In this document: piece after piece, positions 779 to 54,944 of the stretch
How positions within the stretch are numbered: the first letter of the stretch is position 1
Layout: each line of letters starts with the position of its first letter
Assembly (NCBI GenBank): GCA_964529025.1
Contig: CAZGUZ010000004.1
Span: 4,805-68,804, forward strand
Direction of reading: 5' to 3'
Length of the DNA: 64,000 nt
From: an uncultured Candidatus Saccharibacteria bacterium
GTDB taxonomy: Bacteria; Patescibacteriota; Minisyncoccia; Phycocordibacterales; PALSA-1337
The notes under the pieces: model-generated
Databases searched by the model: none
What the model was told of the DNA's origin: nothing
The model's input: only the letters and a program-made list of their open reading frames with translations
Made by a program: the position numbers and the translations under genes

Positions 779-818
779 TCGCCGTTTTATAATGTTTGCT
801 AAAAACGGCGGGGACTTG
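779..818 (+). terminator. Rho-independent terminator hairpin (cgccgtttt...aaaacggcg)
   Basis: Inverted repeat cgccgtttt / aaaacggcg immediately after the stop of the 445-753 ORF. Confidence 0.5.
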
Positions 819-819
819 T

Positions 820-1480
820 GCGCGCACTGGGCGGGTGGGGCAAGCACAAAGAGTTACCACGAACACCGCCGAAGCCACAGAGCGAACACGAAGCAACACC
901 GAGCAGGCATCGTGAGCGGAGCGAGCGACCAGTGAGAGGTGCTTGCGAAGTGCTTGCGAAGTGTGAGCGGACTACCGAACTACCACAGAACGCGGAGACG
1001 GGAGCGCCTCGGGCCGACGCAAACGACGGAGAAAAGGCGGGCGTAAAACTGGCAAAAATGCTAAACTACACTTATAAGCCTTTTTGGAGGAGTGAAGCGG
1101 CGGCGGCAAAACCAAAAATTTCCTTCCTTTCAAATGTTCCGCTTCGCGGCGGGGGGTGTGGGGGGAGCCGCAAATAAAAATGATAGGAAATTTTTGGGTT
1201 TTGCCCCGCGCGAGCTTGTCGAGCGCGGCCGAGGCGCAAGTATCATTCGTCAAAATCCTGCGGATTTTGCCCGAAATACATTCGAACTTCGTCCAATACA
1301 CACCGCAATGATCAGAGAAGACGGCTTAATGCCGTCTGAGCTGAGCATTAACGCGCGAGAAAGTGAGATTCGAAAGCCGGAGCGCGACGGCGCGAGGCGG
1401 GGTCGCAGGCCGAACCAGTAGGTGAGGACCTGTGACCGAATCTCCCTCTCTCCGCCGTGACAATAAAGTATCAGAGTTTA
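820..1480. repeat. GC-rich non-coding region holding two copies (E0 about 880-1000; E1 about 1340-1480) of a repeated GC-rich element family
   Basis: No protein-like ORF on either strand; GC far above flanks. E1 shares gtgagattcgaaagccggagcgcgacRgcgcgaggcgggg...gtgaccRaatc with the copy at 2195-2300. E0 (gagcggagcgagcgaccagtgagaggtgcttgcgaag) resembles the copy after tRNA-Tyr at about 36060-36110. Confidence 0.5.
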
Positions 1481-5841: not shown

Positions 5842-6865
5842 TAATGTAAGTTACCAAACGAGAATCAGCCGATGTGGTGATAGTAATAGGGTAAGTGGCA
5901 ATAATAGTGAATTGTGATGATTCAAGAGCAAGCTTAAATGTTGCGAGTTCACTTGTATAGGCAATAAGTTTACCGCCAGTGTTTAAATGCTGTTCGGCAT
6001 ATGCAATAAATTCTGTATAAAGTTTTGTAAGGTTGATTCCCTTAGCAATCTTCATACCAAAAGGTAGGTCGGACGTAATAATATCAAAGTTTCCAAAATC
6101 AGGGCGAGCAAAAATATCAGCAACTTTAATTGTTATATTCTTAATGAAGCCAGCATTCTGAATATTGCGTATTGCTCGTGTAGCAGCTTCATTTGAATGG
6201 TCAAAGCCAACATAGTTTAAGCGAGGGTTAATTTGAGCGGCTTCAATAAGGAGTGTTCCGCTGCCAGAAAATATATTCAAATATGATTTTGCTTTAAATA
6301 ATCCGCAAAGACTGTTAATTGCATAAGCAATTGTAGGGTTAAGGCTGCCTTCGCTATGGTTTGTTTTATATCCACGCACAGAAAGCGGTCGAGGGGTCAT
6401 TTGCACTGAAAGCTCCCAATCGTACCCTGGTCGAGCAATTACAATTTTAAGATCAGCTTCTTCTGCCTCGGTGAGCTTATAGGTGCTTTCAATATACTTT
6501 TTAAGCGCAGTTACCGCCTTTGAATCTGAACCAGCACAGCTAATTTTATAGGTTGCAAATTCTCTTGGTTGTGATGATTCATGGAGAACGGTAAAAATAA
6601 GATCACCAAGAAGCGATTTGTGATTTGAAAGATAGTAGGGGTTAAGATGTGTACCTCGGCGCATTAAGCGTATACGAGCAACACTTTTAAGGTTTCTGAG
6701 TGTACTGAATGTTGAAGAACAATCAACAGTTATGCTTTCTTCGCCCGAAGCATCGAGAACTTTAATATCAGAATGTTGAGCCAATTCTTGCACAACAATT
6801 TCTTTAAGACCCTTAAGAAAGTCGAGGGTAATATAGGTAGGTGAGAGGAATTTCTGAGTGCTCAT
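5819..6865 (-). CDS. THUMP-domain class I SAM-dependent RNA methyltransferase (UPF0020 / RlmL-N / Trm14-like)
   Basis: N-terminal THUMP-like region followed by an MTase fold: IFSGSGTLLIEAA (motif I) and SDLPFG (motif IV). Confidence 0.55.
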   Translation of the reverse strand: MSTQKFLSPTYITLDFLKGLKEIVVQELAQHSDIKVLDASGEESITVDCSSTFSTLRNLKSVARIRLMRRGTHLNPYYLSNHKSLLGDLIFTVLHESSQPREFATYKISCAGSDSKAVTALKKYIESTYKLTEAEEADLKIVIARPGYDWELSVQMTPRPLSVRGYKTNHSEGSLNPTIAYAINSLCGLFKAKSYLNIFSGSGTLLIEAAQINPRLNYVGFDHSNEAATRAIRNIQNAGFIKNITIKVADIFARPDFGNFDIITSDLPFGMKIAKGINLTKLYTEFIAYAEQHLNTGGKLIAYTSELATFKLALESSQFTIIATYPITITTSADSRLVTYIIICSRKG

Positions 6866-6933
6866 ATGATATATAATAATATCATAAAATATGAGCGAAG
6901 TAAAGGCTTTTTGTGTCCCACGAGTATCAGGAT

Positions 6934-7869
6934 TTACTGTGTTGCAATGTGAACGTATATATCTTCGAGTGCTTTTACAGCGTCACCTGCTGCAATGTTG
7001 TTTTGATGATAGAGTCCGTCAGTACAATCGCCAGCTGCCCAGATTCCTTTGCATGATGTGGCTTGCGTGCGAGGGTTAACAACAATAGTTCCTACAGGTG
7101 TAAGTTCTACAAGATCTTTGACAAAATAAGTTACAGGTAAAGCACCGATTTCGATAAAGATTCCTGTTGTTGGTATATGTACGATTTTGCCAGATTCTGC
7201 GTTTTTATATGAAATTCCTTCAACAAAACTTGAACCGTGTACTTCGTGAGGAATTGCATTGGTAATAACTGTAAGTTTTGGGTTTTGAGAAAGCTTTTCT
7301 ACAGTAACTGGATCGGCCTTAAATGCTGTACTGCGATTAAGGAGGGTTACACTTTTACAATATGCTAAAAGTTGAGCGGCGCTTTCAAAAGCGGCGTTTC
7401 CACCACCAACTACTACAACATCTTGATCAGCAAAGAGGGGACCGTCGCATGTTGCACAATATGTAAGGCCTTTGTGTTCAAGTTTATCTGCTCCAGGAAC
7501 CTCAAGTTTGCGGCGTGAGCTACCTGTAGTCACTAAAACAGTTTTTGTAGTGTATACGAGCTTTTCAGAGCCTTTAGAGGTAGTTACAGTAAAAGTCCCA
7601 TCTGCATTTTTGGCTACAGTTGAGCATGATTCACCCGTATGAATATCGACAGTTGTGCCCGCATATGCGCGCAAATGTGATTCAAGAGATTTTGATAGAT
7701 CAGTACCACTAATTTTTACCGTACCAATCCAGTTTTCAACACCATCAGAAACTGAACTTTGACCAAGAAAGTCTTTGGTAATAAAAAGTGTACGAAGTTT
7801 TTTTCGCGAAGCATAGACTCCGGCTGCAACACCCGCAGGACCACCACCAATAATTGTTAAATCATACAT
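6934..7869 (-). CDS. trxB: thioredoxin-disulfide reductase
   Basis: GGGPAG FAD motif, redox-active CATCDG, NADPH-binding GGGNAA. Confidence 0.85.
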   Translation of the reverse strand: MYDLTIIGGGPAGVAAGVYASRKKLRTLFITKDFLGQSSVSDGVENWIGTVKISGTDLSKSLESHLRAYAGTTVDIHTGESCSTVAKNADGTFTVTTSKGSEKLVYTTKTVLVTTGSSRRKLEVPGADKLEHKGLTYCATCDGPLFADQDVVVVGGGNAAFESAAQLLAYCKSVTLLNRSTAFKADPVTVEKLSQNPKLTVITNAIPHEVHGSSFVEGISYKNAESGKIVHIPTTGIFIEIGALPVTYFVKDLVELTPVGTIVVNPRTQATSCKGIWAAGDCTDGLYHQNNIAAGDAVKALEDIYVHIATQ

Positions 7870-24094: not shown

Positions 24095-24160
24095 GCAAAA
24101 GAATAACCGCGCTTTATGGGCGCGGTATTTTGCTGGCCGAGTGACACGAGGTCACTCGGG
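24095..24160. terminator. two adjacent hairpins (ccgcgctttatgggcgcgg; ccgagtgacacgaggtcactcgg) between convergent transcription units
   Basis: Perfect inverted repeats; they mark the boundary between the AT-rich pilin array and the GC-rich island. Confidence 0.5.
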
Positions 24161-24673
24161 CAGTTTCTCGATCCAAATTGTCGATGCCGTTTGCACGGGC
24201 GACGACTGGTCGATCCAACACTCGAGGTATGTGGCAGGCGGGTAGTGAACCCGCTTGCTGCGGTCTCCGGGTTTGGCCCGGAGCTCGAGGTTTTCGTTTG
24301 AGTCTACATCATAGATGTAGCGACGGCTCATGTAGCCGTCCACCTGGATTACGAGCCTGAGGCCCGAGCCCAGGTGCTTCTGGTCAACCGAGAGCTTGAA
24401 GTTTACAACTCCCGGCTTAATGACGGTCGGTTGCCCGACTGAGAGCGGGTACACCGTCACGGTGTACTGCCGCTCATCGCGCTCCGTCTGACGGAATGCG
24501 ACGGTGGCGGCTTCGGCCTGGGATTCCTTGCGGATTCCCGAAACCCAAGCAGTGAGGGGCTCCTTGAGAGCTGATATGATGAGTAGTCCGACGATAATCG
24601 TCACCACCCACCGAATGATACCTACGATCTTCTTTGACGGATCGTTGGCACCTTCTTTTTTCTTGTCTGCCAT
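24152..24673 (-). CDS. hypothetical membrane-anchored protein (GC-rich island gene C; possibly NfeD-like beta-domain partner)
   Basis: N-terminal TM IIRWVVTIIVGLLIISAL then a soluble beta-rich domain; GC about 57%, unlike the host. Confidence 0.45.
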   Translation of the reverse strand: MADKKKEGANDPSKKIVGIIRWVVTIIVGLLIISALKEPLTAWVSGIRKESQAEAATVAFRQTERDERQYTVTVYPLSVGQPTVIKPGVVNFKLSVDQKHLGSGLRLVIQVDGYMSRRYIYDVDSNENLELRAKPGDRSKRVHYPPATYLECWIDQSSPVQTASTIWIEKLPE

Positions 24674-24677
24674 AGCT

Positions 24678-25745
24678 TTACGGGGTTCCTTGGTTCATGT
24701 TGACACCAGCAGGATTCAGGTCGAATGCCCGAACAACATCAGCGATTTGCTCAGGTGAACAGCCAGTTCTTGTCATGGAGGCAATGAGCGCATCGCGCCT
24801 AGCCGCATCGTCAGCTGCTGCATTCGCAAGTGACCGCCTTTGTTCGGTGAGTCTCCTCTCCATCGCTTCATCTTCTGAAGCGGTAGTGAGTGCTAGGCTA
24901 ACAATCTTGAATCTTCCCACAGCGATGCCAAGCTCAATTTGCTTAGGATCAAGTACGGTTTTCTCCCCGTAGCTGAGTTCAAGATGAGCAAGTGCCGCAG
25001 CTTGTCCAGTAGCCCCCTGAACACTGTCAGGGGTCTTCTGGGCAAACCACTGCCTCATGTAGTTGAGCACATGAAGGCGCACCTGTTCTTCGAGGTCTGG
25101 GTAACCTTTGCATTCTCCACTGAAGAATCGCTTAGCGGTGATTCCTGCAAGAGGTCGTATGACTTGGTACTGCAAAGAGAACTCCGCACTAGCAGTTCTC
25201 TGTACGAGGGTTGTTGACCCTGAGTCGGGAAGAGGTGCGGGCATAAGTGGAAATTGATCCTTAAGAACCAGCACCCTTGGCCCCACCTTGAACTTGGTTG
25301 CCACGGTTACCCATGGCGGCTTGACTGTGACAGTGACGGGCATGAACGCTCCATCTATCACTACTGGTGGACCCGTGTAGGACATAACCTTTGTCGGGTC
25401 ATCGTCTTCGATTTCCGGTATATCGAATCCCTTAAGCTCAACTGGGAAGTTAATGCCAAAAGGGTTCTGAAGTACCAGAATTTCATCTGCTTCGGGCACA
25501 ATGAGGTGCTTTCCGATGAAGAAGAAAGTTGAAATCAAAGTGACGGCCGTGAAGGATTTTGCCCCACACTTCCACCCTGAGAATCCAATAATCTCCCCCA
25601 TGGTGTTGAAGACGAATACTGCTAGCGCAGCCACAATGAGTGATGCGACTAGCGAGAGTCCTACATACCCTAGTGGGGTAGACAGGCGGTAGCCCCATTT
25701 CTGCTTGAAGCTTGCTCCCTGAGTTCTAGCTATTAATGTTGACAT
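24678..25745 (-). CDS. hypothetical membrane protein, possibly SPFH/band-7-like (GC-rich island gene B)
   Basis: Two N-terminal TM segments, a central mixed domain, and a C-terminal Ala/Arg-rich coiled coil (ERRLTEQRRSLANAAADDAARRDALIASM) reminiscent of SPFH proteins. Confidence 0.4.
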   Translation of the reverse strand: MSTLIARTQGASFKQKWGYRLSTPLGYVGLSLVASLIVAALAVFVFNTMGEIIGFSGWKCGAKSFTAVTLISTFFFIGKHLIVPEADEILVLQNPFGINFPVELKGFDIPEIEDDDPTKVMSYTGPPVVIDGAFMPVTVTVKPPWVTVATKFKVGPRVLVLKDQFPLMPAPLPDSGSTTLVQRTASAEFSLQYQVIRPLAGITAKRFFSGECKGYPDLEEQVRLHVLNYMRQWFAQKTPDSVQGATGQAAALAHLELSYGEKTVLDPKQIELGIAVGRFKIVSLALTTASEDEAMERRLTEQRRSLANAAADDAARRDALIASMTRTGCSPEQIADVVRAFDLNPAGVNMNQGTP

Positions 25746-25837
25746 GTAATGAACTTACCATTTGTTGAATGGCACCTTTCTGTATATATATTACAATATA
25801 AAATATAGAATGTCAAATATGTTAAATTATGAAAATT

Positions 25838-25866
25838 AGACAAAAGGAAAGGCGCGCCGCAAGCGG
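25838..25866. terminator. 22-nt perfect palindrome ggcgcgccgcaagcggcgcgcc with T/A runs on both sides (bidirectional terminator)
   Basis: Read directly; lies just 3' of the 25900-26601 gene. Confidence 0.55.
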
Positions 25867-25899
25867 CGCGCCGATTTTGTTGTACTACTGCCCGCACCG

Positions 25900-26601
25900 T
25901 TATTCCGGCGTGAACAGGACGATCCGAGGATCGTTACCGTCGTTCGAGATCTCAAACCTCCTGACGGGCATAGGTTTCTTCTGCCACTCGGCAAAAGGGA
26001 TTGTGCCACCGGTTTCAAGGAGGACGTTGATGACAACCCCTGGATCGGGGTCGATGTTGAATCTTACTCGATTACTGATCGTCACGGTGGCGACCTCGCC
26101 ACCGAGGAGTGAGATCGAGCCAACCTGGCTCGAGGTTGTCCAGACATACTCGAGTTGGGGCACCTTAACCTTCCTCTGCGCCTTTTCAGGCTCAGAATAT
26201 GTGCGTTCTGCACGTACCGACCCCGTTGGAGGACGGACGAGAGTAGAGCGCTCAAGGTGATGGTTCTCGTTGTCCAACTGGTCCTCCAACGCAGCGAGTT
26301 TCTTTCGAAGCTCCGCAGCGTCGCGGATTGCCGTGTCACGCGAATGTTCAATTCTCGAGACGTGGTTGGTGAGTTCGCGAATGCGGGCTTCCGAACCGCT
26401 TTCGACATCGTGCCGTCGAGGAGTTGTTGGCGAGTTCGTTGCACCGGCCGTGGTGGCCGCAGTTCGCTTCTCAGCAACCAACTGCCCCCCAAGCCAGTGC
26501 CGAACACTCGGCACGAAGAGGAGGGCGCAGGCCGTGATGATCACGAGCTTGAACCAATGAGCTTTGACGAATTTCCAAATAGCTGCCCAAATTGCTGTCA
26601 T
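25900..26601 (-). CDS. hypothetical single-pass membrane protein with coiled coil (GC-rich island gene A)
   Basis: TM LVIITACALLFVP, coiled-coil RIRELTNHVSRIEHSRDTAIRDAAELRKKLAALEDQL, C-terminal beta-rich domain; GC-rich. Confidence 0.45.
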   Translation of the reverse strand: MTAIWAAIWKFVKAHWFKLVIITACALLFVPSVRHWLGGQLVAEKRTAATTAGATNSPTTPRRHDVESGSEARIRELTNHVSRIEHSRDTAIRDAAELRKKLAALEDQLDNENHHLERSTLVRPPTGSVRAERTYSEPEKAQRKVKVPQLEYVWTTSSQVGSISLLGGEVATVTISNRVRFNIDPDPGVVINVLLETGGTIPFAEWQKKPMPVRRFEISNDGNDPRIVLFTPE

Positions 26602-26787: not shown

Positions 26788-26872
26788 TGGTGCTGGAGGG
26801 GAGACTCGAACTCCCACGGGTTACCCCGCTTGCTCCTAAGGCAAGTGCGTATACCAATTCCGCCACCCCAGC
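26788..26872 (-). tRNA. tRNA-Leu (anticodon TAG), CCA encoded
   Basis: Reverse complement GCTGGGGTGGCGGAATTGGTA...CTTGCCTTAGGAGCAAG...GGGAGTTCGAGTCTCCCCTCCAGCACCA; long variable arm. Confidence 0.85.
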
Positions 26873-26876
26873 AATG

Positions 26877-26949
26877 TGCTCCCAGTAGGATTCGAACCTA
26901 CGACCAATCGCTTAAGAGGCGAGTGCTCTACCAACTGAGCTATAGGAGC
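26877..26949 (-). tRNA. tRNA-Lys (anticodon CTT)
   Basis: Reverse complement GCTCCTATAGCTCAGTTGGTAGAGCACTCGCCTCTTAAGCGATTGGTCGTAGGTTCGAATCCTACTGGGAGCA. Confidence 0.85.
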
Positions 26950-26999
26950 TTGATAGAAAATATACCTTAAAACTTGATTTTGAGCAATGCTTGAGTGAC

Positions 27000-27140
27000 T
27001 GTGCTAGGGGAATTGAATGGGTGAATCGGTCACGCGTTAAAATTGCTACACAATTTTACGCTCGACCCCGCCTCCTGTGCACCGGTTCGCTACGCTCACA
27101 TCGGTGCTACAGTCCGGCTTTCGATTCCCGCCTCGGGCAC
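27000..27140 (-). repeat. copy E3 of the GC-rich repeated element, between tRNA-Leu(TAA) and tRNA-Lys on the tRNA strand
   Basis: Read on the minus strand: gtgcccgaggcgggaatcgaa-AGCCGGA-ctgtagcaccgatgtgagcgtagcgaaccggtgcacaggaggcggggtcgagcg...cgtgaccgattcaccc. The first 20 nt are a perfect inverted copy of the 3' end of tRNA-Leu(TAA). Confidence 0.5.
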
Positions 27141-27173
27141 TTAAATAAGCGCTTTCGCGCTTATAAAATACTG

Positions 27174-27255
27174 TGCCCGAGGCGGGAATCGAACCCGCAC
27201 GCCGTGAGGCCGCCGATTTTAAGTCGACTACGTATACCAGTTCCGTCACTCGGGC
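27174..27255 (-). tRNA. tRNA-Leu (anticodon TAA)
   Basis: Reverse complement GCCCGAGTGACGGAACTGGTATACGTAGTCGACTTAAAATCGGC...GCGGGTTCGATTCCCGCCTCGGGCA; long variable arm. Confidence 0.8.
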
Positions 27256-45973: not shown

Positions 45974-46005
45974 AGGCGCGCGCAACGAAAGTTGCGCGCG
46001 TTTGA
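45974..46005. terminator. bidirectional terminator ggcgcgcgcaacgaaagttgcgcgcg
   Basis: Perfect 9-bp stem between convergent genes. Confidence 0.55.
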
Positions 46006-46016
46006 TTAAATGGTGG

Positions 46017-46907
46017 TTACTCCATGATGCTTCTTGCAGCATCAAGGATTTCCTTGAGGTAGTTCTCAGCTGACCACCCGTTGCCGAGAAGGCCAAAGAC
46101 TGGCTTTTTGAATGCGTACCTCGGCTGTACCTCAGGCGTGACACGGCCAGTCCAGCCAACTTGTTTGGCAAAATCGCCGAAACTCTTGAGGGGAAGCTTG
46201 CCGCGGCCGGGTATAGGATTTCGGCCTTTTGTGTCACCAAGATCAGGTAATGCATCGCAAAGGTGAATCTCTTGAGTGCACCTAAGCAAAGTGCGGGCTC
46301 CTTCAAGAAGCATGCGCTCAAGATCACTGTTGGTGTACCTAGCAAGTCTCGAGACTCCGATTCCGCCAGTACACCATTCAAGGTAGTGCATTGTGTCGAA
46401 CACAACGCAACGGGTGACGGGCGAGCAAGTTGTTGCAATACGGACAAAGTCCGCAATGCTAATCTGCTTGTCTACCACCTGGCACGTTTGAAACAGAAGT
46501 CCGTCCCTAGCGCGATGAACTTCATTCTGGATTCTGTGGGCATAGCCCACGAAAAACCCTTGTGTTTCGTTAAGTCGAATCTGCGACTCAATCGGCTCTG
46601 TTTTCCGAGGGATTTTGCCGAGTGCAGCAGCCACGTAGTTAAACTTGTGGTTACTCCCATTCTCCAACGACCAGACTTCATGAAACCTCACCTCGAAGGG
46701 CCTGCTGTGGCGACTTGTGGTCGCTTCAGCAAGCTCTTTGATTTTGGTAAAGTCTGTTCCGGGGAATGTGACAATCTCAATACCATCGAAGCCAACACTC
46801 GCAGCCATTTCCATCTGTTCCCCAAGAGGAATGCTTGGAAATGCTGTAAGCGCTGCCGACGGCATGATGTACGTATGTCGATGTTTCATCTGACTACTTT
46901 TTAACAC
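46017..46907 (-). CDS. sugar phosphate isomerase/epimerase-like TIM-barrel protein (moderately GC-rich)
   Basis: Xylose-isomerase-like TIM-barrel pattern (VGFDGIEIV...); GC visibly above genome background. Confidence 0.45.
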   Translation of the reverse strand: MLKSSQMKHRHTYIMPSAALTAFPSIPLGEQMEMAASVGFDGIEIVTFPGTDFTKIKELAEATTSRHSRPFEVRFHEVWSLENGSNHKFNYVAAALGKIPRKTEPIESQIRLNETQGFFVGYAHRIQNEVHRARDGLLFQTCQVVDKQISIADFVRIATTCSPVTRCVVFDTMHYLEWCTGGIGVSRLARYTNSDLERMLLEGARTLLRCTQEIHLCDALPDLGDTKGRNPIPGRGKLPLKSFGDFAKQVGWTGRVTPEVQPRYAFKKPVFGLLGNGWSAENYLKEILDAARSIME

Positions 46908-46957
46908 AAAAAAACGCTTTTGTACAGCGTTTCTTGCTTCCTGCTATCAGATTAGAA

Positions 46958-48745
46958 CTATTCCTTAACTGTTCGCTTAAACTTTGCTCGGTCAGTGGCA
47001 GTGAGATATTTTTTACGGAGTCGTACTGAAAGAGGAGTGATTTCGAGGTATTCATCGTCGCGCATAGTTTCAAGACCACGCTCAATGTCGAGCTTCCAAG
47101 CTGGTGTAAGCATGATGTGCTCATCAGAACCAGAAGCACGCATGTTAGTGAGCTGCTTTCCTTTGCATGGGTTAACCTCCATATCTTCGCCCTTTGATAC
47201 GTCACCAACAATCATGCCTTCGTAAACGTTAGTGCCCGGCTCAATAAAGATTCGGCCTCGTGCTTGTAGGTTCCACAAAGCAAATGCTACTGCTTGGCCA
47301 GCCATCATCGATGACATAGCTCCTGTTGTATGCTTTTCAATTGAGCCAGCATATTCTTTAAAGCCAACGAAACGACTTGCAAGAATTCCTTGACCCTTAG
47401 TGTCGATAACGAAAGCTCCACGGTATCCCAAAAGACCACGAGTAGGGATTTCGAAAATCATGCGAACCTGATTTTCTTTTGTCTTCATGTCTGTCATGAG
47501 AGCCTTTCGAACACCGAGCTTTTCGATAATTGCTCCAGAGAATTCCTCGGGAATATCGATAGTAAGCTCTTCATATGGTTCAAGCTTAACGCCGTTTTCT
47601 TCTTTAAAGATTACCTGTGGCTGTGATACTTGAAGCTCATAACCTTCGCGACGCATATTTTCAAGAAGAACTGCAATGTGGAGTTCACCTCGGCCATATA
47701 CTTTGTAGTATTCAGAAGAACTAAAATCTACCTTAAGACCAACGTTAATTTCGAGCTCTTTTTCGAGTCTGTCACGAATCTGTCGGCCAGTTACAAATTT
47801 ACCTTCTTTTCCGGCAAATGGAGAGTTGTTAACAAGAAAGTTAAGCGAGATCGTTGGCTCATCAATCGTAATAGCAGGCATTGCAGGAGTAGCATCGGCA
47901 TCGGTAATAGTTTCACCGATGTAAATATCAGGAATACCGGCTATGGTAATGATGTCGCCAGATTCTGCTTGGGCTACTTCGACACGCTTTTTACCTTCGA
48001 AAGAGAAAAGCTTAGTAATGCGTCCAGTAATTGTTGAACCATCAATCTTTTTTACAAAAACTTGCTGACCATTTTTAATGGTACCGTCATATACTCGGGC
48101 AATAGCAAGGCGACCAAGAAAGTTGTCATAGCCAAGGTTAAATGTTTGAGCAACAAGAGGTGCCTCAGGGTTTTTATTTGCCTTTGGAACAAACTCAATA
48201 ATAGTGTCGAGAAGTGGTGTAAGGTCTGTTGATGTATCGGTAAGGTTCTTTTTAGCAATTCCTTGGCGGCCAATAGCGTAAATTGTAGGGAAGTCGATTT
48301 GAATATCATTTGCACCAAGCTCCATAAAGAGTTCGAGCACCATTTCATGAACCTTTTCTGGCTGAGCAGCTGGCTTATCAATTTTATTGATAATAACAAT
48401 AGGGCGTAGGCCAAGTTCAAGAGACTTCTTAAGTACGAAACGAGTCTGTGGCATAGGGCCTTCCTGAGCGTCGACAACAAGGAGAACAGTGTCGATTGAT
48501 CGCAAAACGCGTTCTACTTCTGAGCCAAAGTCAGCGTGTCCTGGTGTGTCGACAATGTTAATCTTTGTTCCTTTATAGTTAATTGAGGTGTTTTTGGCGT
48601 AAATGGTAATGCCTCGTTCTTGTTCAAGAGCATTTGAATCCATACTACCTTCGTCGCCATGACCACATTGTGTCATGATTGCATCGGTAAGGGTTGTTTT
48701 GCCGTGGTCCACGTGTGCGATAATCGCAATGTTTCGTATATCCAT
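46958..48745 (-). CDS. typA: translational GTPase TypA/BipA
   Basis: [31 protein letters not shown]-motifs and EF-G-like C-terminal domains. Confidence 0.9.
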
Positions 48746-48823
48746 ATAGAGAAATTAGACCATAATTAAAGCAAAATAATGGCTTAATGTCAATTTATTT
48801 GTTATTGAGGGTATAAAATTCTA

Positions 48824-50101
48824 CTAGGGAACTCGAATTCGCTTGAGGAGAGGTGAAATATGCACTGCAATATCGTAACTTAGTGTCTTTGCTTCACGAG
48901 CAATTGAATAGAGAGAGTTCTGGTGCATAAAATCTTCTCCGCTCATGACACAAACTTCATCACCTTCTTTAATAATCATAATTTGCGAAGCTAAAGTAAT
49001 ATCAATTGCAGTAATGTTCATGCTTACTCTTCCAATGATTGGGCAATAGATTTCATTAATACGAACGTTGCCATTATTAGATAATGCTCGAGGAATACCT
49101 TCGTTGTATCCAAGGGGGATTAGGGCAATTAAGCGGTCGCGCGGAGCAATGTATGTCATATTGTAACCGACACTTTCTCCAGCTTTTACTTTTTTTATAC
49201 CATAGAGCTTTGCATATACAGACATAACTAATTTAAGAGGAACAATGTCGTCGACAGTTGCACCAATGGTAAGGCCAAACATACCACCGCCAATACGTAC
49301 AACATTGGCATGTGCTTGATTTGCATAATAGGTTCCACCTGTATTACTGATATGTGTGTATTTGAGTTGCGGAGCAAAAGGCGAGAGTTCTTGTACTGCA
49401 TTATTCCATGTCGTGATTTGTTCGAGAGATTTTGTAGGATCAGCAGAATCAGAATCTGCAAAGTGTGAAGCAAAACCGTGGACGTGTATTTTTGCCTTCG
49501 GACAGACTTCCAAAAGTTCTTTGAGATCAGTAAATTCGTTCGGCTTTATGCCTTGTCGATTCATTCCTGTATCAATTTTGATGTGAATAGAAACAGGTAC
49601 GGGCTCGAATACTCGAGTTGGTTCGCCTTTGTACTCAATGCGGTACTTAATGAGGTCGCGGAAATGATCCATACTTGAAATCATGTATGAACAATGCGGA
49701 ATACTGTCATAGTGTATGGTGCGTGCCTCGGTGTAGCCGGCAATAAGGATAGGGAGGTGTGTGCTTTGTGCGCGCAAAGCTTGTGCTTCAAAAAAAGAAT
49801 CAACAACAAAGAATGGGATTTTGTCGGCAAAATTCTCGGTGAGAATTTGCGCAACAAGGGTTGCACCATGCCCGTATGCATTGCTTTTGAGTACAGGAGC
49901 AATTTTGAGCGGTTTGTCCGCCTGCGCTAAAAGTGCTGACCACGCAGAAAAATTGTGCTTAAGGGCAGATTCAGAAATGCGTACGGTAATAAGGGGAGGA
50001 AACTTGCCAGCTCGTGCCGAGCGCAGTTTATAAAATATTTGTCGCAAGTTACGACCTACGGTGTACAACCAATGTGTTATAAAAAACGGCATTTTATACA
50101 T
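48824..50101 (-). CDS. alr: alanine racemase with about 35-aa N-terminal extension encoded inside a tandem repeat
   Basis: PLP-Lys motif APVLKSNAYGHG. The ORF continues to 50200, but the first in-frame Met codons (MYKMPFF) lie at about 50101/50092. Confidence 0.75.
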   Translation of the reverse strand: MYKMPFFITHWLYTVGRNLRQIFYKLRSARAGKFPPLITVRISESALKHNFSAWSALLAQADKPLKIAPVLKSNAYGHGATLVAQILTENFADKIPFFVVDSFFEAQALRAQSTHLPILIAGYTEARTIHYDSIPHCSYMISSMDHFRDLIKYRIEYKGEPTRVFEPVPVSIHIKIDTGMNRQGIKPNEFTDLKELLEVCPKAKIHVHGFASHFADSDSADPTKSLEQITTWNNAVQELSPFAPQLKYTHISNTGGTYYANQAHANVVRIGGGMFGLTIGATVDDIVPLKLVMSVYAKLYGIKKVKAGESVGYNMTYIAPRDRLIALIPLGYNEGIPRALSNNGNVRINEIYCPIIGRVSMNITAIDITLASQIMIIKEGDEVCVMSGEDFMHQNSLYSIAREAKTLSYDIAVHISPLLKRIRVP

Positions 50102-50391
50102 AGAGAGAGTATACAAGAAGTGGGGGGATGTTGCTATTGATGTGTGGGGTTTTAGTGTTGGCAGGTTAGGGTATTGTGAGGGGATCGAGCTACCCACCAC
50201 GTGCCGAACGTAGTTTATAAAATATTTGTCGCAAGTTACGACCTACGGTGTACAACCAATGTGTTATAAAAAACGGCATTTTATACATAGAGAGAGTATA
50301 CAAGAAGTGGGGGGATGTTGCTATTGATGTGTGGGGTTTTAGTGTTGGCAGGTTAGGGTATTGTGAGGGGATCGAGCTACCCACCACGTGC
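50010..50391. repeat. 187-bp tandem direct duplication (two units, 2 mismatches) covering the alr 5' end/promoter; a third partial copy of about 40 nt at about 51120-51160
   Basis: Unit gtgccgaRcgYagtttataaaatatttgtcgcaag...gatcgagctacccaccac occurs at 50014-50200 and 50201-50387. The motif cattttataYatagagaRWKYatacaagaaKg recurs at about 51120-51160. Confidence 0.8.
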
Positions 50392-50429
50392 TATTTACTA
50401 TCATTATACTGTATGTTATAATATAAATA

Positions 50430-50987
50430 GTGAAAACATTTGTAATCTTTCTGGATCAGCTTGAAAAGGCCGGGCTAGATGTAGAAGCTGTAGAAGCCTT
50501 TTCTGTGCTTTCGGGCGCAGAGAAGGCACGCATTGCCGCCGCAATGATGGCAGTGATGAGGGTACCGCCTGACTCCGGTCAGACGGTGGTCATGCAGCCT
50601 CCTCCGGTCCAGCAAGGCAAGAGCCGGAAGGTACATATCGTCAATCGCACGAGTGGCCTTCCGAAGGTGGAGTGCAGTGTCCACCGAGAATGGCCGCCAA
50701 TCGGTGTCGTCGCTATTGGCACTGAAATGTGCCTCGGTGATATCGAAGACGTTGGGCCGGGGTGGCGGCTGGCAAACCCAGCTGAGATGCTGTGGTATGT
50801 AGCTGTAGTAACACCAAAGACATCGTTCATTGGGGAGAGGGCTGTGGTCCACGGGAAGGGTTATCAACTTCTCCTTAAGTTGAGAGATGACGGGTCCTGG
50901 ACTCAAGAGTTTGGGACCATGGCAAAGGGCGGGAGTCACTTTCCAGCACTCCTCGTCAAGATCAACAACGAGGACTACATCATCTAG
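50430..50987 (+). CDS. hypothetical protein (GC-rich, probable acquired gene)
   Basis: 185-aa ORF with protein-like composition and GC about 58%. The antisense 264-aa ORF is Cys/His/Arg-rich and was judged spurious. Confidence 0.4.
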   Translation: MKTFVIFLDQLEKAGLDVEAVEAFSVLSGAEKARIAAAMMAVMRVPPDSGQTVVMQPPPVQQGKSRKVHIVNRTSGLPKVECSVHREWPPIGVVAIGTEMCLGDIEDVGPGWRLANPAEMLWYVAVVTPKTSFIGERAVVHGKGYQLLLKLRDDGSWTQEFGTMAKGGSHFPALLVKINNEDYII

Positions 50988-51179
50988 AGTACTTGCTCTG
51001 GATGATGCGCAAAAGACGGTCATTCTCGAAAGAGGTGGCCGTTTTCTTTTTTGTACTACGCAAGACTTTTTTGATAAGGATATACGCATTCCACATAACT
51101 TTGTATAGGTATCGGGTGATAAGAACGACATTTTATATATAGAGAATTCATACAAGAATGACTGATCGATCACGTAATT

Positions 51180-51208
51180 GACATATATAGCTAAAAGTAG
51201 TATAATCT
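51180..51208 (+). promoter_or_regulatory. consensus sigma70 promoter ttgaca - 17 nt - tataat
   Basis: Read directly, about 50 nt upstream of the 51261 ORF, with a gaggga SD-like motif before the ATG. Confidence 0.5.
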
Positions 51209-51260
51209 TCTTCAGAAAGGACCCTATAAACGGTTCATAACGAGCCGAGGGAACAATCAA

Positions 51261-51677
51261 ATGAGTCATTATTTACATAGAGGCCCGTCGAGGGTCGAGT
51301 ACCTCAAAGCAACCTTTTCGATGGTTGCCTCATCGGTGTTTTACTTCGTCGCAGCTGCCATCGTCTTGGTGGTGGCGCTGTGTCTGAAGCTCGACATCGA
51401 GTTTACGTACAGACCTATCTGGGCGCTGTTTGGTGTCATTGTGGCGATTGCATCGCTTGGGCAGTTGTGCTGGATTGTACCCAGCACAATCTACGCCCTG
51501 CGAAATGAGTTCAAAAATCAGGTCATCTGCGACATGGAGTCGCGGATCGACACTGCACAAGTGATGCTTCCGTGGCGGCTGCCACGAGAGGTGTGGGATG
51601 GGTTGGCTGACGACGCACAACGACTTCGCCGCTCTTGGAAACGGCGACAAGAGCGGCGGCGAAGTGCTGGGAAGTAG
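51261..51677 (+). CDS. hypothetical 2-TM membrane protein with Arg-rich C-terminus (GC-rich)
   Basis: TM segments VFYFVAAAIVLVVALCL and IWALFGVIVAIASLGQLCWIV; followed by terminator ggcggagga-cttgtt-cctccgcc-tttttt (51686-51720). Confidence 0.45.
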   Translation: MSHYLHRGPSRVEYLKATFSMVASSVFYFVAAAIVLVVALCLKLDIEFTYRPIWALFGVIVAIASLGQLCWIVPSTIYALRNEFKNQVICDMESRIDTAQVMLPWRLPREVWDGLADDAQRLRRSWKRRQERRRSAGK

Positions 51678-51685
51678 TATCCCAG

Positions 51686-51720
51686 CACACGAGGCGGAGG
51701 ACTTGTTCCTCCGCCTTTTT
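51686..51720 (+). terminator. intrinsic terminator
   Basis: Stem ggcggagga/tcctccgcc plus a T6 run. Confidence 0.6.
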
Positions 51721-51808
51721 TCTTAGCTAGTTTTCCTATTTGCAGTAATAAACAGTATGTATTGCATTTTTTACAAGATTAATGTATTCTGTGATCTATA
51801 ACAAAGCC

Positions 51809-51967
51809 ATGGCAAAACAGACCCGACTTATACAACTCAAGAATAAGGAAACTGGCGAAGTATACTGGACCGCTAAAAACAAGCGAAAAGTTGAGCGAAA
51901 AATCGAGCTCAAAAAGTACAGTTCAAAACTTCGAAAACACGTTTCATTCAAAGAAGGAAAGAAGTAG
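51809..51967 (+). CDS. rpmG: 50S ribosomal protein L33 (Cys-less, non-zinc form)
   Basis: MAKQTRLIQLKNKETGEVYWTAKNKRKVERKIELKKYSSKLRKHV aligns to L33; the four Zn-ribbon Cys are absent. Confidence 0.65.
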   Translation: MAKQTRLIQLKNKETGEVYWTAKNKRKVERKIELKKYSSKLRKHVSFKEGKK

Positions 51968-52032
51968 CAAAAATACCGCTCTGCGGTTTTTTGTTTGCGA
52001 TTCCGCAATTTTCGCGCTACAGTAGGTGTAAA

Positions 52033-52105
52033 GGGCGATTAGTTAAGTGGTATAACTACGGTCTCCAAAACCGTTGTCGGGGGTTCGATTCCCTCATCGC
52101 CCGCA
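52033..52105 (+). tRNA. tRNA-Trp (anticodon CCA)
   Basis: GGGCGATTAGTTAAGTGGTATAACTACGGTCTCCAAAACCGTTGTCGGGGGTTCGATTCCCTCATCGCCCG. Confidence 0.8.
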
Positions 52106-52124
52106 ACAGCAGTATGAGCTAAGC

Positions 52125-52430
52125 ATGTCTCGGCGAATACTGACTCTTGATCGAGCCAAAGAATGGATTAATAAATTTAACTTGGACTTACATTTTACTG
52201 GTGTTGGATACAAACAGAGTAAGGCTCCAGCGTGTAAAGATCTTGATATCTATGTTGATGATGATATTGATAAACTCGAGGAGTTGTTGAGTGTTGTTCC
52301 ACAGCGACTGTTGCTATCGTGGGATTATAATCAACATGTTCCCAGTTCAAACATTGCTCAACGAATTAATTCGTGGCACGAGATTTATAATTTTGTTATT
52401 TCAAATAACCTTCACGAGAGGAGTCGATAA
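52125..52430 (+). CDS. hypothetical protein
   Basis: ORF trimmed to the first Met after the tRNA-Trp gene; no TM (so not SecE); no recognisable domain. Confidence 0.3.
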   Translation: MSRRILTLDRAKEWINKFNLDLHFTGVGYKQSKAPACKDLDIYVDDDIDKLEELLSVVPQRLLLSWDYNQHVPSSNIAQRINSWHEIYNFVISNNLHERSR

Positions 52431-52472
52431 ATTCTTTGTAAGTTCTTTATAAAGTCGTGGTATACTCTGTGT

Positions 52473-53258
52473 ATGAATCGGTCTCTGGTTAAAGTAAGTA
52501 TTGTTATGAGCGCGGGAGTCGCTCTTATTTGCGCTCTTATTGTAGGAATTCCTCCACTACAAAATTGGATCACTCTTTCTACTGCGCGAAAAGCTAATTC
52601 TGTTTCGTATTCAGTTGCTAATGTGGTTGCTGCTGCGCATCAGGTGTGGGGGCATGCTTCGAGTACAACGTATTTAACGGTTCCTTTTCTTAAGCAAAAA
52701 TATTCGCTCTCGTGCGAAATCGCTTCTTTGCGCATGGCTTTAGCGTATAAAGGAAAGCCTATTGATGAAGACTTCTTAATTTCTCAATTGCCTTTTGATA
52801 CCATTGATCCTATTTCTATAGACAAAGTGACGGGCGCTCGAGTTTGGGGTGATCCATATAAGGGTTTTGTCGGCATCATCAATGGAAAAATGCCTGTAAC
52901 TGGCTATGGTGTATATGATAAGCCAGTATACGACATTGCAAAACTCTATGGCGAAGCCGAGCTCTTAGAGAATGCAACACTCCGCGATATTATTCGTGAA
53001 ATTCTTTTGGGTAATCCTGTTGTTGTGTGGGGTTCATTAACGGATGGAAAAGATATTTCTTGGTTTACTCCCGAGGGAAAGGAAATTAAAGCAATTGCAG
53101 GTGAGCATGCTCGTGTTTTCGTTGGTTTTTATGGTGATCCAGAGCAACCAACAGAAATTCTTTTAATTGACCCTGTGTACGGACATATTCGTATGTCAAC
53201 AGAAAAGTTTTTGAAAGATTGGTCTCTTTTAGGGAATATGGGTGTTGTGATTCGTTAA
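52473..53258 (+). CDS. peptidase C39-like domain protein (YvpB/C39_2 family), membrane-anchored
   Basis: N-terminal TM; FLKQKYSLSCEIASLRMALAYKG (catalytic Cys context) with later His/Asp positions. Confidence 0.5.
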   Translation: MNRSLVKVSIVMSAGVALICALIVGIPPLQNWITLSTARKANSVSYSVANVVAAAHQVWGHASSTTYLTVPFLKQKYSLSCEIASLRMALAYKGKPIDEDFLISQLPFDTIDPISIDKVTGARVWGDPYKGFVGIINGKMPVTGYGVYDKPVYDIAKLYGEAELLENATLRDIIREILLGNPVVVWGSLTDGKDISWFTPEGKEIKAIAGEHARVFVGFYGDPEQPTEILLIDPVYGHIRMSTEKFLKDWSLLGNMGVVIR

Positions 53259-54264: not shown

Positions 54265-54345
54265 ATTCGCAGCAGAGTATCATTCATTTCTCGTTCTGCT
54301 TCTACGGCTTGAGCTAGCGTTTCTCATTCAAATATTCATTTCGTA

Positions 54346-54430
54346 TGGTGCCGGAGGAGAGAATCGAACTCTCATGGGTTGCCCCGCACGATTTTGAGTC
54401 GTGTGCGTCTGCCAATTCCGCCACTCCGGC
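54346..54430 (-). tRNA. tRNA-Leu (anticodon CAA), CCA encoded
   Basis: Reverse complement GCCGGAGTGGCGGAATTGGCAGACGCACACGACTCAAAATCGTG...GAGAGTTCGATTCTCTCCTCCGGCACCA. Confidence 0.85.
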
Positions 54431-54532
54431 ATTTATTGCGCTACCTTTCGGTTGTCTATTACACGTGATACTGTAGCAGATTTTTAAATAAAATACGAGA
54501 CTTGCATTCGAGAGCTGGATCCACTGAGTTGT

Positions 54533-54565
54533 AATTGACAGACTCGATAAAAATAGGGTATATTC
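54533..54565 (+). promoter_or_regulatory. sigma70-like promoter ttgaca - 17 nt - gtatat/tatatt
   Basis: Read directly upstream of the GC-rich small ORF. Confidence 0.4.
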
Positions 54566-54677
54566 TATTCGTAGTTCTTTATTATGAACCCCCCCCAAAA
54601 AAAATCCCCTCCTCGATGTCCTATCGAGGGACGGAGACCCCACAGATGATGAGGTCGACAGTGTCGACCTTTCTACA

Positions 54678-54944
54678 ATGCTCGTTAAGGCGAGCATCAA
54701 CAGAGCTCCGACTTTTGCAAGTCCGGGGCTCGAGGGTGGCAGCTTTATTGCTGCGAGTAACGGCAACTTGCTTGCCGCAGAACACAACTCCACTCTGCGG
54801 TTTTTGCAGGGAGGTACTACGGGTAACCAGGTCGTCATGACCGCAGTTCCCGAGACCGGTAGTGCTGGTATGCTGTTCGGTATTGCGGCATGTTTTGTCG
54901 CCGGCCTTCTGTTCCTGCGGGGGCGCAGGGCAGTTGTTGGGTAG
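54678..54944 (+). CDS. candidate small GC-rich ORF (88 aa) with C-terminal sortase-like sorting signal (VPETG + hydrophobic segment + RGRR) but no N-terminal signal peptide
   Basis: AVPETGSAGMLFGIAACFVAGLLFLRGRRAVVG at the C-terminus. Flanked by a promoter (54533-54565) and a strong terminator gcggcgaccgt-ttgg-acggtcgccgc-ttttat (54964-54995). GC about 58%. Confidence 0.3.
   Translation: MLVKASINRAPTFASPGLEGGSFIAASNGNLLAAEHNSTLRFLQGGTTGNQVVMTAVPETGSAGMLFGIAACFVAGLLFLRGRRAVVG

Follow-up and report, generated by a model that had tools for sequence, protein, structure and literature searches.

Among the duplications and amplifications that arise independently of RecA in Escherichia coli, junctions at microhomologies are the norm (PMC1428787). 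In Mycobacterium tuberculosis, promoter mutations and an upstream deletion raise expression of the alanine racemase gene, alr, more than 30-fold and bring resistance to D-cycloserine (PMC6744398). Two further kinds of system bear comparison with the locus described here, namely integrative elements that regenerate the ends of their target genes as attL and attR, and the accessory-gene hotspots, or islets, found between core genes. The locus lies in a 64,000-nucleotide (nt) stretch of contig CAZGUZ010000004.1 from an uncultured Candidatus Saccharibacteria bacterium, which we call the window. It consists of a 187-bp tandem repeat at the 5' end of alr and, between alr and the ribosomal protein gene rpmG, two genes rich in guanine and cytosine (GC), p185 and p138, named after the lengths of their products in amino acids (aa). 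The reading that we favour, and to which we give a probability of about four in five, is that a recent microhomology-mediated duplication lies beside older, independent GC-rich accessory genes in the alr-rpmG slot.

Tandem Repeats Finder (TRF) reports a single array at 50013-50391 with a period of 187 nt, 2.0 copies, 98% matches, 0% indels and a score of 744. The two units are identical at 185 of 187 positions, the mismatches being G at 50021 against A at 50208 and C at 50024 against T at 50211. The near-identical units with two mismatches that the initial annotation had described are therefore real, by TRF and by direct reading of the sequence. On the minus strand, each unit carries 89 nt of alr coding sequence (codons 1-29, plus 2 nt from codon 30), preceded by 98 nt that include the alr promoter. 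The alr start ATG-TAT-AAA-ATG-CCG (MYKMPFF) is present in both units, as had also been noted, with the ATG at 50101-50099 and at 50288-50286. Unit 1 has, at both mismatch sites, the bases found in the relatives L004 and L001; both substitutions in unit 2, at 8 and 11 nt from the junction, are silent when read in the alr frame. The junction reads ...CCCACCACGTGC followed directly by CGAACGTAG, and the sequence around it is ...CCCACCACGTGCCGAACGTAG....

A single-copy allele of the region is found in L004, a different NCBI assembly that is 99.75% identical to the window. It has exactly one unit with the pentamer CGTGC on both sides, the pentamers being 187 nt apart, and the distance between alr and p185 is 141 nt there against 328 nt in the window. 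The junction of the window consists of one such pentamer. A single alr start motif is found in each of six relatives (L001, L002, L004, L167, L172 and L173), and the duplication is therefore specific to the window's strain. Strand slippage, template switching or illegitimate recombination between the two CGTGC pentamers, a microhomology of 5 bp, would give a tandem 187-bp copy of this kind. The junction bears the classical signature of a microhomology-mediated event independent of homologous recombination, and is mechanistically ordinary.

As in the microhomology-mediated tandem duplications of E. coli and Salmonella (PMC1428787), the copies stand head to tail with no spacer or other intervening sequence, the junction falls at a short G/C-rich direct repeat of 5 bp, the copies of the microhomology bound the single-copy allele one period apart, and the difference is a polymorphism at strain level. 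The junction is also supported, indirectly, by independent contigs. Unlike those duplications, the unit here is only 187 bp long and takes in a promoter and the 5' end of a gene rather than whole genes, and two substitutions cluster beside the junction. Part of the value of the locus is that it shows, cleanly and in nature, a microhomology duplication close to a promoter, in a bacterium that is uncultivated and has a reduced genome.

Logan contigs, which are built from 31-mers (a graph with k = 31), were used as an indirect proxy for reads. Such a graph must break at 50362 because ...CACGTGC precedes both C (at the junction) and T (at the exit), and the contigs of SRR10036056/58/59, which are 100% identical to the window, all start at this position, the start of the 31-mer that extends one base beyond the repeat. 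On the alr side, a contig end was predicted at 50054 because the 31-mer from 50025, right after the last unit-specific single-nucleotide polymorphism (SNP), has two predecessors. This break was predicted beforehand and then tested with a 409-aa partial Alr query, and contigs of SRR10036063 and SRR10036056, again 100% identical, start exactly there. Contigs thus break at both branch points of the tandem topology across four runs, from which it follows that the duplication exists in the sequenced population. It is very improbable that the sample held only single-copy alleles, perhaps from two strains differing at both SNPs, which the assembler stitched into a false tandem. That the 187-bp period exceeds the typical short-read length, that L004, assembled from another sample, is single-copy, and that the test rests on contigs rather than raw reads all speak for such an artefact. 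However, a k-mer graph could not obtain this junction from single-copy alleles that share only 5 nt, and a SNP bubble from two strains would break the alr-side contig at about 50020, whereas the contig crosses the unit-1 alleles and stops at 50054. Two SNPs between the units are also not expected from a simple duplication by the assembler. We therefore treat the duplication as real; it appears to be a very recent, strain-specific, head-to-tail event of 187 bp that took in the alr promoter region and the first 29 alr codons.

Relatives in which the slot could be compared were recovered through a protein index; Alr scans of GTDB genomes and JGI metagenomes gave none above 42% identity, and the best matches there, at 42% or less, were metagenome-assembled genomes of Saccharibacteria, Peribacteria and Parcubacteria. 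The lineage is rare and resembles the candidate phyla radiation (CPR)/Patescibacteria. L004, with an Alr 100% identical, carries both p185 (about 100% identical) and p138 (100%). L001 and L002 (Alr 95%) also carry both, at 89% and 69%, respectively, L002 ending within the cassette. The contig ERZ21966605 (Alr 95%), judged from gene sizes, holds genes of 122, 189 and 138 aa, the 185-aa family being 65-71% identical. Genes of 122, 179 and 138 aa fill the slot in L167, L172 and L173 (Alr 79%), with identities of 30% for the 185-aa family and 76% for the 138-aa protein. L168 (Alr 67%) has a 199-aa gene only, 25% identical to p185, and no 138-aa gene. In L169 (Alr 56%) both families are absent and the slot is empty, with nothing in the 142 nt between rpmG and alr; the insert-free alr-rpmG junction that the initial annotation had proposed to look for thus exists. 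Both families are absent from L170 (Alr 43%) as well, where the slot is occupied by an unrelated secreted protein of 378 aa; an hhalign probability of 0.2% led to its rejection from the 185-aa family. Homologues of p185 at the same locus comprise P0002-4, P0129, P0130 and the 199-aa protein of L168.

The 122-aa gene, which lies between alr and the 185-aa family gene in the lineage with 79% Alr identity (L167 92-460, minus strand; L173 5508-5876, plus strand) and, by gene size, in ERZ21966605, is also GC-rich, with a GC content at third codon positions (GC3) of 0.63. It encodes a membrane protein without a family match and has its own TTGACA promoter and terminator.

Only one unit stands beside the cassette in L004, L001 and L002, and gene spacing indicates likewise for the ERZ21966605 contig; the duplication is therefore a separate event of later date. 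The P0003 contig (Alr 95%) carries the cassette. The cassette is older than the 187-bp duplication by a wide margin. The initial annotation had taken the repeats to bracket the GC-rich genes and to mark their acquisition by duplication or recombination at the alr promoter, alr gaining an N-terminal extension in the process. The cassette is indeed compositionally foreign, and the repeat abuts it, ending 2 nt from the -35 box of p185. Nevertheless, target duplication by an insertion is scarcely credible. With no sequence between them, the units stand together on the left of the GC-rich genes and enclose nothing, and between the two genes there is only a 38-nt relic of the alr start region. At least six relatives have the cassette with one unit, among them the insert-bearing L001, L002, L004 and L173. 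The units are 185/187 identical, against a deep divergence of the cassette, in which the 185-aa protein falls to 25-30% at 67-79% Alr identity. The conserved 425-aa alr start rules out the extension. The GC-rich genes are also found in an unchanged setting throughout the lineage: relatives with as little as 67% Alr identity have a member of the 185-aa family there, and those with as little as 79% have the 138-aa gene. The initial annotation had itself named such conservation as a ground for rejecting its proposal. No recombinase, integrase or transposase was found by Pfam, PHROG, NCBIfam or PADLOC matches of either cargo protein, the neighbours being alr and rpmG. A causal link between the duplication and the GC-rich genes is not supported.

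We return to the alr-rpmG slot as the seat of older cargo. It is a variable accessory-gene site, or hotspot, whose cargo belongs to orphan families seen only in this lineage, with the 185-aa family as its long-term, very fast-evolving resident. Like accessory-gene hotspots and islets between core genes, it has fixed flanks (alr on one side, rpmG and tRNA-Trp on the other), variable content, atypical GC content and codon usage, and self-contained units of promoter, gene and terminator. Unlike them, it has no integrase, transposase, attachment (att) sites or target-site duplications, its cargo is only 1-3 genes, and the 185-aa family gene, a long-term resident, stays GC-rich rather than ameliorating. 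As for horizontal acquisition, the atypical composition and a patchy distribution with an empty site are both present, and an outside donor or homologue is not.

The host-atypical composition reported by the initial annotation is borne out, although the GC content first given, about 58%, was too high (Table 1). GC3 is 0.60 in p185 and 0.64 in p138 against 0.35 in alr and typA, and the relative synonymous codon usage (RSCU) of the cassette correlates with that of 19 core genes at -0.08, whereas two halves of the core correlate with each other at 0.95. In L173 the cargo has a GC3 of 0.53-0.63 against 0.33-0.37 in the flanks. Synonymous divergence (dS) between the window and L001 is uneven along the region 46958-53258, being 0 for rpmG, 0.13 for typA, 0.29 for the C39 peptidase gene, 0.33 for p185, 0.48 for alr and 1.0 for p138, which suggests a mosaic produced by recombination among related strains. 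Because the cargo of L173 stays GC-rich and dS reaches 1.0 in p138, exchange of alleles from an unseen GC-rich pool is suggested rather than one old transfer.

Several points weigh against the combination of a recent duplication with an older, independent cassette. Support for the junction comes from assembled contigs rather than raw reads, and the runs probably share a project with the assembly of the window. There could be more than 2 copies, since extra copies of unit 2 are invisible to short k-mers. Both unit-2 substitutions fall within 12 nt of the junction, for which the chance is roughly (12/187)^2 = 0.004; simple slippage does not predict this, and the clustering hints at error-prone synthesis at the junction or at another process. 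The slot may have been filled by insertion in the clade whose Alr identity is 67% or higher, or emptied in L169; the comparison, being unrooted, fits either order. The searches turned up no donor for the GC-rich genes anywhere, and their GC-richness is held across lineages at just 79% Alr identity, a pattern poorly accounted for by one old transfer and later amelioration.

The alr gene itself is intact. Alr is assigned with confidence by Pfam (Ala_racemase_N, E 2.8e-40, 138.8 bits against a cut-off of 24.1; Ala_racemase_C, E 2.1e-32, 111.8 bits against a cut-off of 25), the racemase domains covering residues 75-455 of a 458-aa open reading frame (ORF) that begins with a GTG at 50200. The supposed N-terminal extension in this ORF does not stand. 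The alr start is called at MYKM, giving 425 aa, in L001, L002, L004, L167 and the ERZ21966605 contig, and remoter orthologues measure 425-429 aa from the equivalent start. Because the single-copy L001 and L167 have an open frame before MYKM as well, and the orthologues start at MYKM, the extension is an artefact of the ORF finder, which takes the first GTG after a stop. The 65-aa orphan ORF reported in unit 2 (50190-50387, minus strand) likewise exists as a mechanical ORF, but read from the conserved MYKM start it is a stub of 32 aa; no matching gene for the 65-aa product was found elsewhere in protein records. The stub is probably non-functional, or an upstream ORF on read-through transcripts. 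For annotation, it is useful to recognise both the 458-aa 'extended' alr and the 65-aa orphan as by-products of the recent duplication.

The putative -10 box of alr is kept while the 6-nt spacer between it and the ATG varies, reading CTCTCT in the window and L167/L173 and CATTGC in L004, L001 and L002; since TATACT is conserved 6 nt before the ATG and the spacer is not, we infer that the alr mRNA is leaderless or near-leaderless. The spacer difference amounts to four substitutions within 5 nt, 50102-50106 (and 50289-50293). Either a polymorphism common to several lineages or a short tract of recombination could account for this cluster; since L167/L173, at 79% Alr identity, have it too, it would be old. 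Over about 5.2 kb, the differences between the window and L004 comprise the 4-nt spacer cluster, the duplication, the two junction SNPs and one further SNP (48428).

The duplication leaves alr with its original start and promoter and with no less than 98 nt of native sequence upstream. What precedes p185 is unaltered, the -35 box of that gene beginning 2 nt past the repeat end, and the only additions are a second alr promoter and the 32-codon stub. The extra promoter could raise alr transcription modestly through read-through, the range running from no effect to a modest rise, and the duplication is probably neutral or the cause of a modest increase. The RNA across the junction is not unusually structured (fold z 0.28). 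An adaptive origin, in which the doubled promoter raises alanine racemase under, for example, a D-cycloserine-like inhibitor or a high demand for D-alanine, seems rather unlikely. It would agree with the concentration of all differences from L004 but one SNP in the alr 5' region, and with the mycobacterial mutations (PMC6744398), in which structural change is likewise confined to the region directly upstream of alr. Here, unlike there, the change is a promoter duplication, not a point mutation or deletion, and is known from the sequence of an uncultivated organism. Moreover, the extra promoter leads into a 32-codon stub and a weak hairpin ahead of alr, the spacer cluster is old and common to L167/L173, and one event in one strain fits neutral drift equally well. 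The duplication is an ordinary structural polymorphism beside an accessory-gene hotspot, and what novelty remains lies in the persistent GC-rich, hypervariable orphan cargo.

The two ORFs of 185 and 138 aa noted at the outset are both present, and each is monocistronic, with a promoter and a terminator of its own (Table 1). The perfect consensus promoter and strong terminator attributed to p138 were found, the promoter about 2 nt from where it had been placed, and its leader is 54 nt long and contains GAGGG. The ratio of non-synonymous to synonymous divergence (dN/dS) between the window and L001 is 0.17 for p185, 0.19 for p138, 0.06 for alr and 0.01 for typA; since this indicates purifying selection, p185 and p138 are functional genes. 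The p185 protein has no hydrophobic segment. In p138, hydrophobic segments at residues 17-50 and 52-77 and 10 lysine or arginine residues among the last 25 agree with the two transmembrane helices and basic tail described earlier.

Table 1. Coordinates of features at the alr-rpmG locus, in positions of the window
Feature	Position	Strand	Remarks
alr, alanine racemase	48824-50101	-	425 aa, ATG start, intact; Pfam and orthologues
Repeat unit 1	50013-50199	.	Ancestral-type copy; TRF; matches single-copy L004 at both differing positions
Repeat unit 2	50200-50386	.	New copy; two substitutions, 50208 A and 50211 T
CGTGC pentamer	50387-50391	.	First 5 bases of a third unit; also at 50013-50017 and 50200-50204
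Putative alr -10 box TATACT	50108-50113 (second copy 50295-50300 in unit 2)	-	6 nt 5' of ATG; kept in L001, L004 and L167
Truncated alr 5' ORF (stub) in unit 2	50190-50288	-	32 codons, MYKMPFFITHWLYTVGRNLRQIFYKLRSARGG, TAG stop just beyond the junction
p185 promoter, TTTACT-17-TATAAT with upstream TG	50394-50422	+	GTG 7 nt past the -10 box; kept in L173 despite 30% protein identity
p185, soluble 185-aa orphan protein	50430-50987	+	GC 54.5%; GTG start; homologues at the same locus
p185 terminator, hairpin and U-tract	51015-51052	+	Fold -19.1 kcal/mol, z -3.0; kept in L001
Relic third copy of alr start region	51121-51158	.	31/38 identical; weaker similarity leftward to about 51096
p138 promoter, perfect 12/12 sigma-70-type consensus TTGACA-17-TATAAT	51178-51206	+	Kept in L001 and L173
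p138, 138-aa membrane protein	51261-51677	+	GC 54.7%; two hydrophobic helices and a basic helical tail
p138 intrinsic terminator	51691-51717	+	11-bp stem; fold -20.6 kcal/mol, z -4.8
rpmG, ribosomal protein L33	51809-51967	+	Pfam Ribosomal_L33; conserved right border of the slot
tRNA-Trp	52033-52104		tRNA call; next after rpmG

Opposite the cargo, an antisense ORF of 264 aa (50475-51269, minus strand) was rejected as a real gene, because in L001 its frame is broken and its conservation lower. On the GC-rich cargo, gene callers and ORF finders favour long antisense ORFs, and comparison shows that it is the plus-strand genes that are conserved. The same is seen in L172-L175, where an antisense call of 159 aa stands opposite the 138-aa gene (for example, 6738-7217 on the minus strand in L173 against the gene at 6711-7127 on the plus strand). 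The locus is a useful reminder to annotators that callers produce such artefacts on GC-rich genes.

The homology search that had been proposed for the two GC-rich proteins matched no known family. Pfam, PHROGs, PADLOC and NCBIfam gave nothing above threshold for either p185 or p138, the best profile match to a PDB sequence, at E 0.16, was not meaningful, and there was no match in 50,697 phage records by tblastn or in IMG/VR by pattern scans. AlphaFold2 models built on 4-sequence alignments had a predicted local distance difference test score (pLDDT) of 38 for p185, which is unusable, and of 60 for p138, which is modelled as four helices; Foldseek of the p138 model against the PDB found no match with E < 1. 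The nearest family for p138 is 8xMP (PF24838), at E 1.9e-4 and 21.7 bits, below the gathering cut-off of 30 bits, and its homologue P0006 scores 16.3 bits. Literature searches on '8xMP' and on accession numbers found nothing relevant. In common with 8xMP and holin-like proteins, p138 is a small protein whose two transmembrane helices are combined with a strongly basic tail at the C-terminus. It differs from 8xMP in missing the membership threshold, and from holins in having no phage neighbours and no PHROG, PADLOC or IMG/VR matches, nor does p185 contain a lysin domain; the resemblance in topology alone is not diagnostic.

Close matches number only 4 per protein among 5.8 billion proteins, and the p185 profile finds only 2 remote matches among 1.84 billion representatives, in the same slot wherever the context could be checked. 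No donor or homologue outside the lineage was found for either protein in the protein index, the phage records or IMG/VR. Our best guess, made with low confidence, is that the cargo acts at the cell envelope, in host interaction or in defence, a soluble, fast-evolving protein working with a small membrane protein of two helices. Expression of the cargo proteins would be worthwhile if they do have a part in host interaction or defence of CPR bacteria. The locus in any case marks a small accessory-gene hotspot in one rare lineage, with two or three orphan families that evolve much faster than the housekeeping flanks and keep a foreign composition.

The partial third copy of the alr start region, reported at about 51120-51160, is real. 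It aligns locally with a score of 44, where 500 shuffles gave 18.1 +/- 2.4 (maximum 34). Since neither strand of the window has any further match that reaches 25/38, the sequence was rejected as a genome-wide promoter motif. Oriented like alr, it corresponds to the stretch from the -10 region through the ATG into the first codons, where it reads IYKMSFL for the MYKMPFF of alr, and lies exactly between the p185 terminator and the p138 promoter. The relic is conserved in L001 and partly in L173, as CATTTT...ATACAAGAAT, and is therefore old. Like the products of integrative elements that regenerate target-gene ends, it is a short direct repeat of the alr 5' end on the far side of p185. Unlike attL and attR, it comes with no recombinase gene, measures only about 38-60 nt at 82% identity, and flanks just one of the two genes.

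It is possible, though we think it unlikely, that the relic (38 to about 60 nt) is what remains of an earlier capture of genes at the alr 5' end, and that duplication there recurs and helps to load the slot. An earlier tandem duplication of the alr 5' end, like that of today, could have received an insertion; alternatively, homology-facilitated illegitimate recombination anchored in rpmG could have imported p138 together with a scrap of a donor's alr 5' end. The significance and uniqueness of the relic in the window, its content and orientation, its place at the boundary within the cargo, its age, and the presence in L168 of a 185-aa family gene without a 138-aa gene would all agree with capture. 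Against it, a single short relic is known, none of the genomes compared is an intermediate and no recombinase is present. Moreover, the right half of the relic (ATACAAGAAT), conserved 5' of the -35 box of p138, could be regulatory; the relic may have been retained as part of the p138 promoter region rather than as a recombination footprint.

A more ambitious proposal, which we regard as speculative and improbable, is that the slot is a long-lived cradle for GC-rich, fast-evolving orphan genes, made accessible to captured genes by recurrent duplication of the alr 5' end, of which the 187-bp repeat and the old relic would be two instances. The 185-aa family does vary from 65-71% to 89% identity among strains all at 95% Alr identity, with a GC3 of about 0.55-0.64 against about 0.33 in the core. 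If the proposal were true, it would imply continual replacement of alleles from an unseen GC-rich pool (a host, phage or plasmid of episymbionts), or selection that maintains the composition.

GC-rich DNA occurs elsewhere in the window. At 24152-26601 (minus strand), beside tRNA-Leu/Lys/Leu at 26788-27255, there are three adjacent orphan genes of 173, 355 and 233 aa with GC3 of 0.71, 0.50 and 0.64; none has a Pfam match, and the 355-aa protein, the only one scanned, has no NCBIfam match. The comparison of codon usage between this island and the cassette, suggested by the initial annotation, gave an RSCU correlation of only 0.30, so a common donor is not indicated and was rejected. At 818-1421 (plus strand) there are two overlapping GC-rich ORFs (GC 0.55-0.585) with no Rfam match. 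Rfam at gathering thresholds finds only tRNAs in the window, and a permissive scan of 49900-51900 gave one chance-level match. The 595-aa TypA has no matching protein record.

A second strain-variable GC-rich islet is found at 45975-46958, 2 kb from the alr repeat locus. It holds an ORF of 296 aa (46017-46907, minus strand; GC3 0.53) with a sub-threshold match to the AP_endonuc_2/xylose-isomerase-like TIM barrel (E 1.9e-6), and no target-site duplication is visible. The ORF is absent from L001, where only one bidirectional terminator hairpin separates the SLFN/bPH gene from typA.

Two further observations concern the right-hand side of the locus. At 54314-54838 (minus strand), an ORF of 174 aa, which is a gene in public records, overlaps tRNA-Leu(caa) at 54346-54430. 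Right after tRNA-Trp, at 52125-52430 (plus strand), lies an NT5C-like (5'-nucleotidase) gene of 101 aa that matches positions 106-176 of the 180 in the Pfam model, that is, its C-terminal part. The gene is 192 aa long in L001 and in the ERZ21966605 contig, and since about 322 bp of L001 (9809-10130) are missing at 52143/52144 of the window, it is a 5'-truncated remnant in the window's strain.

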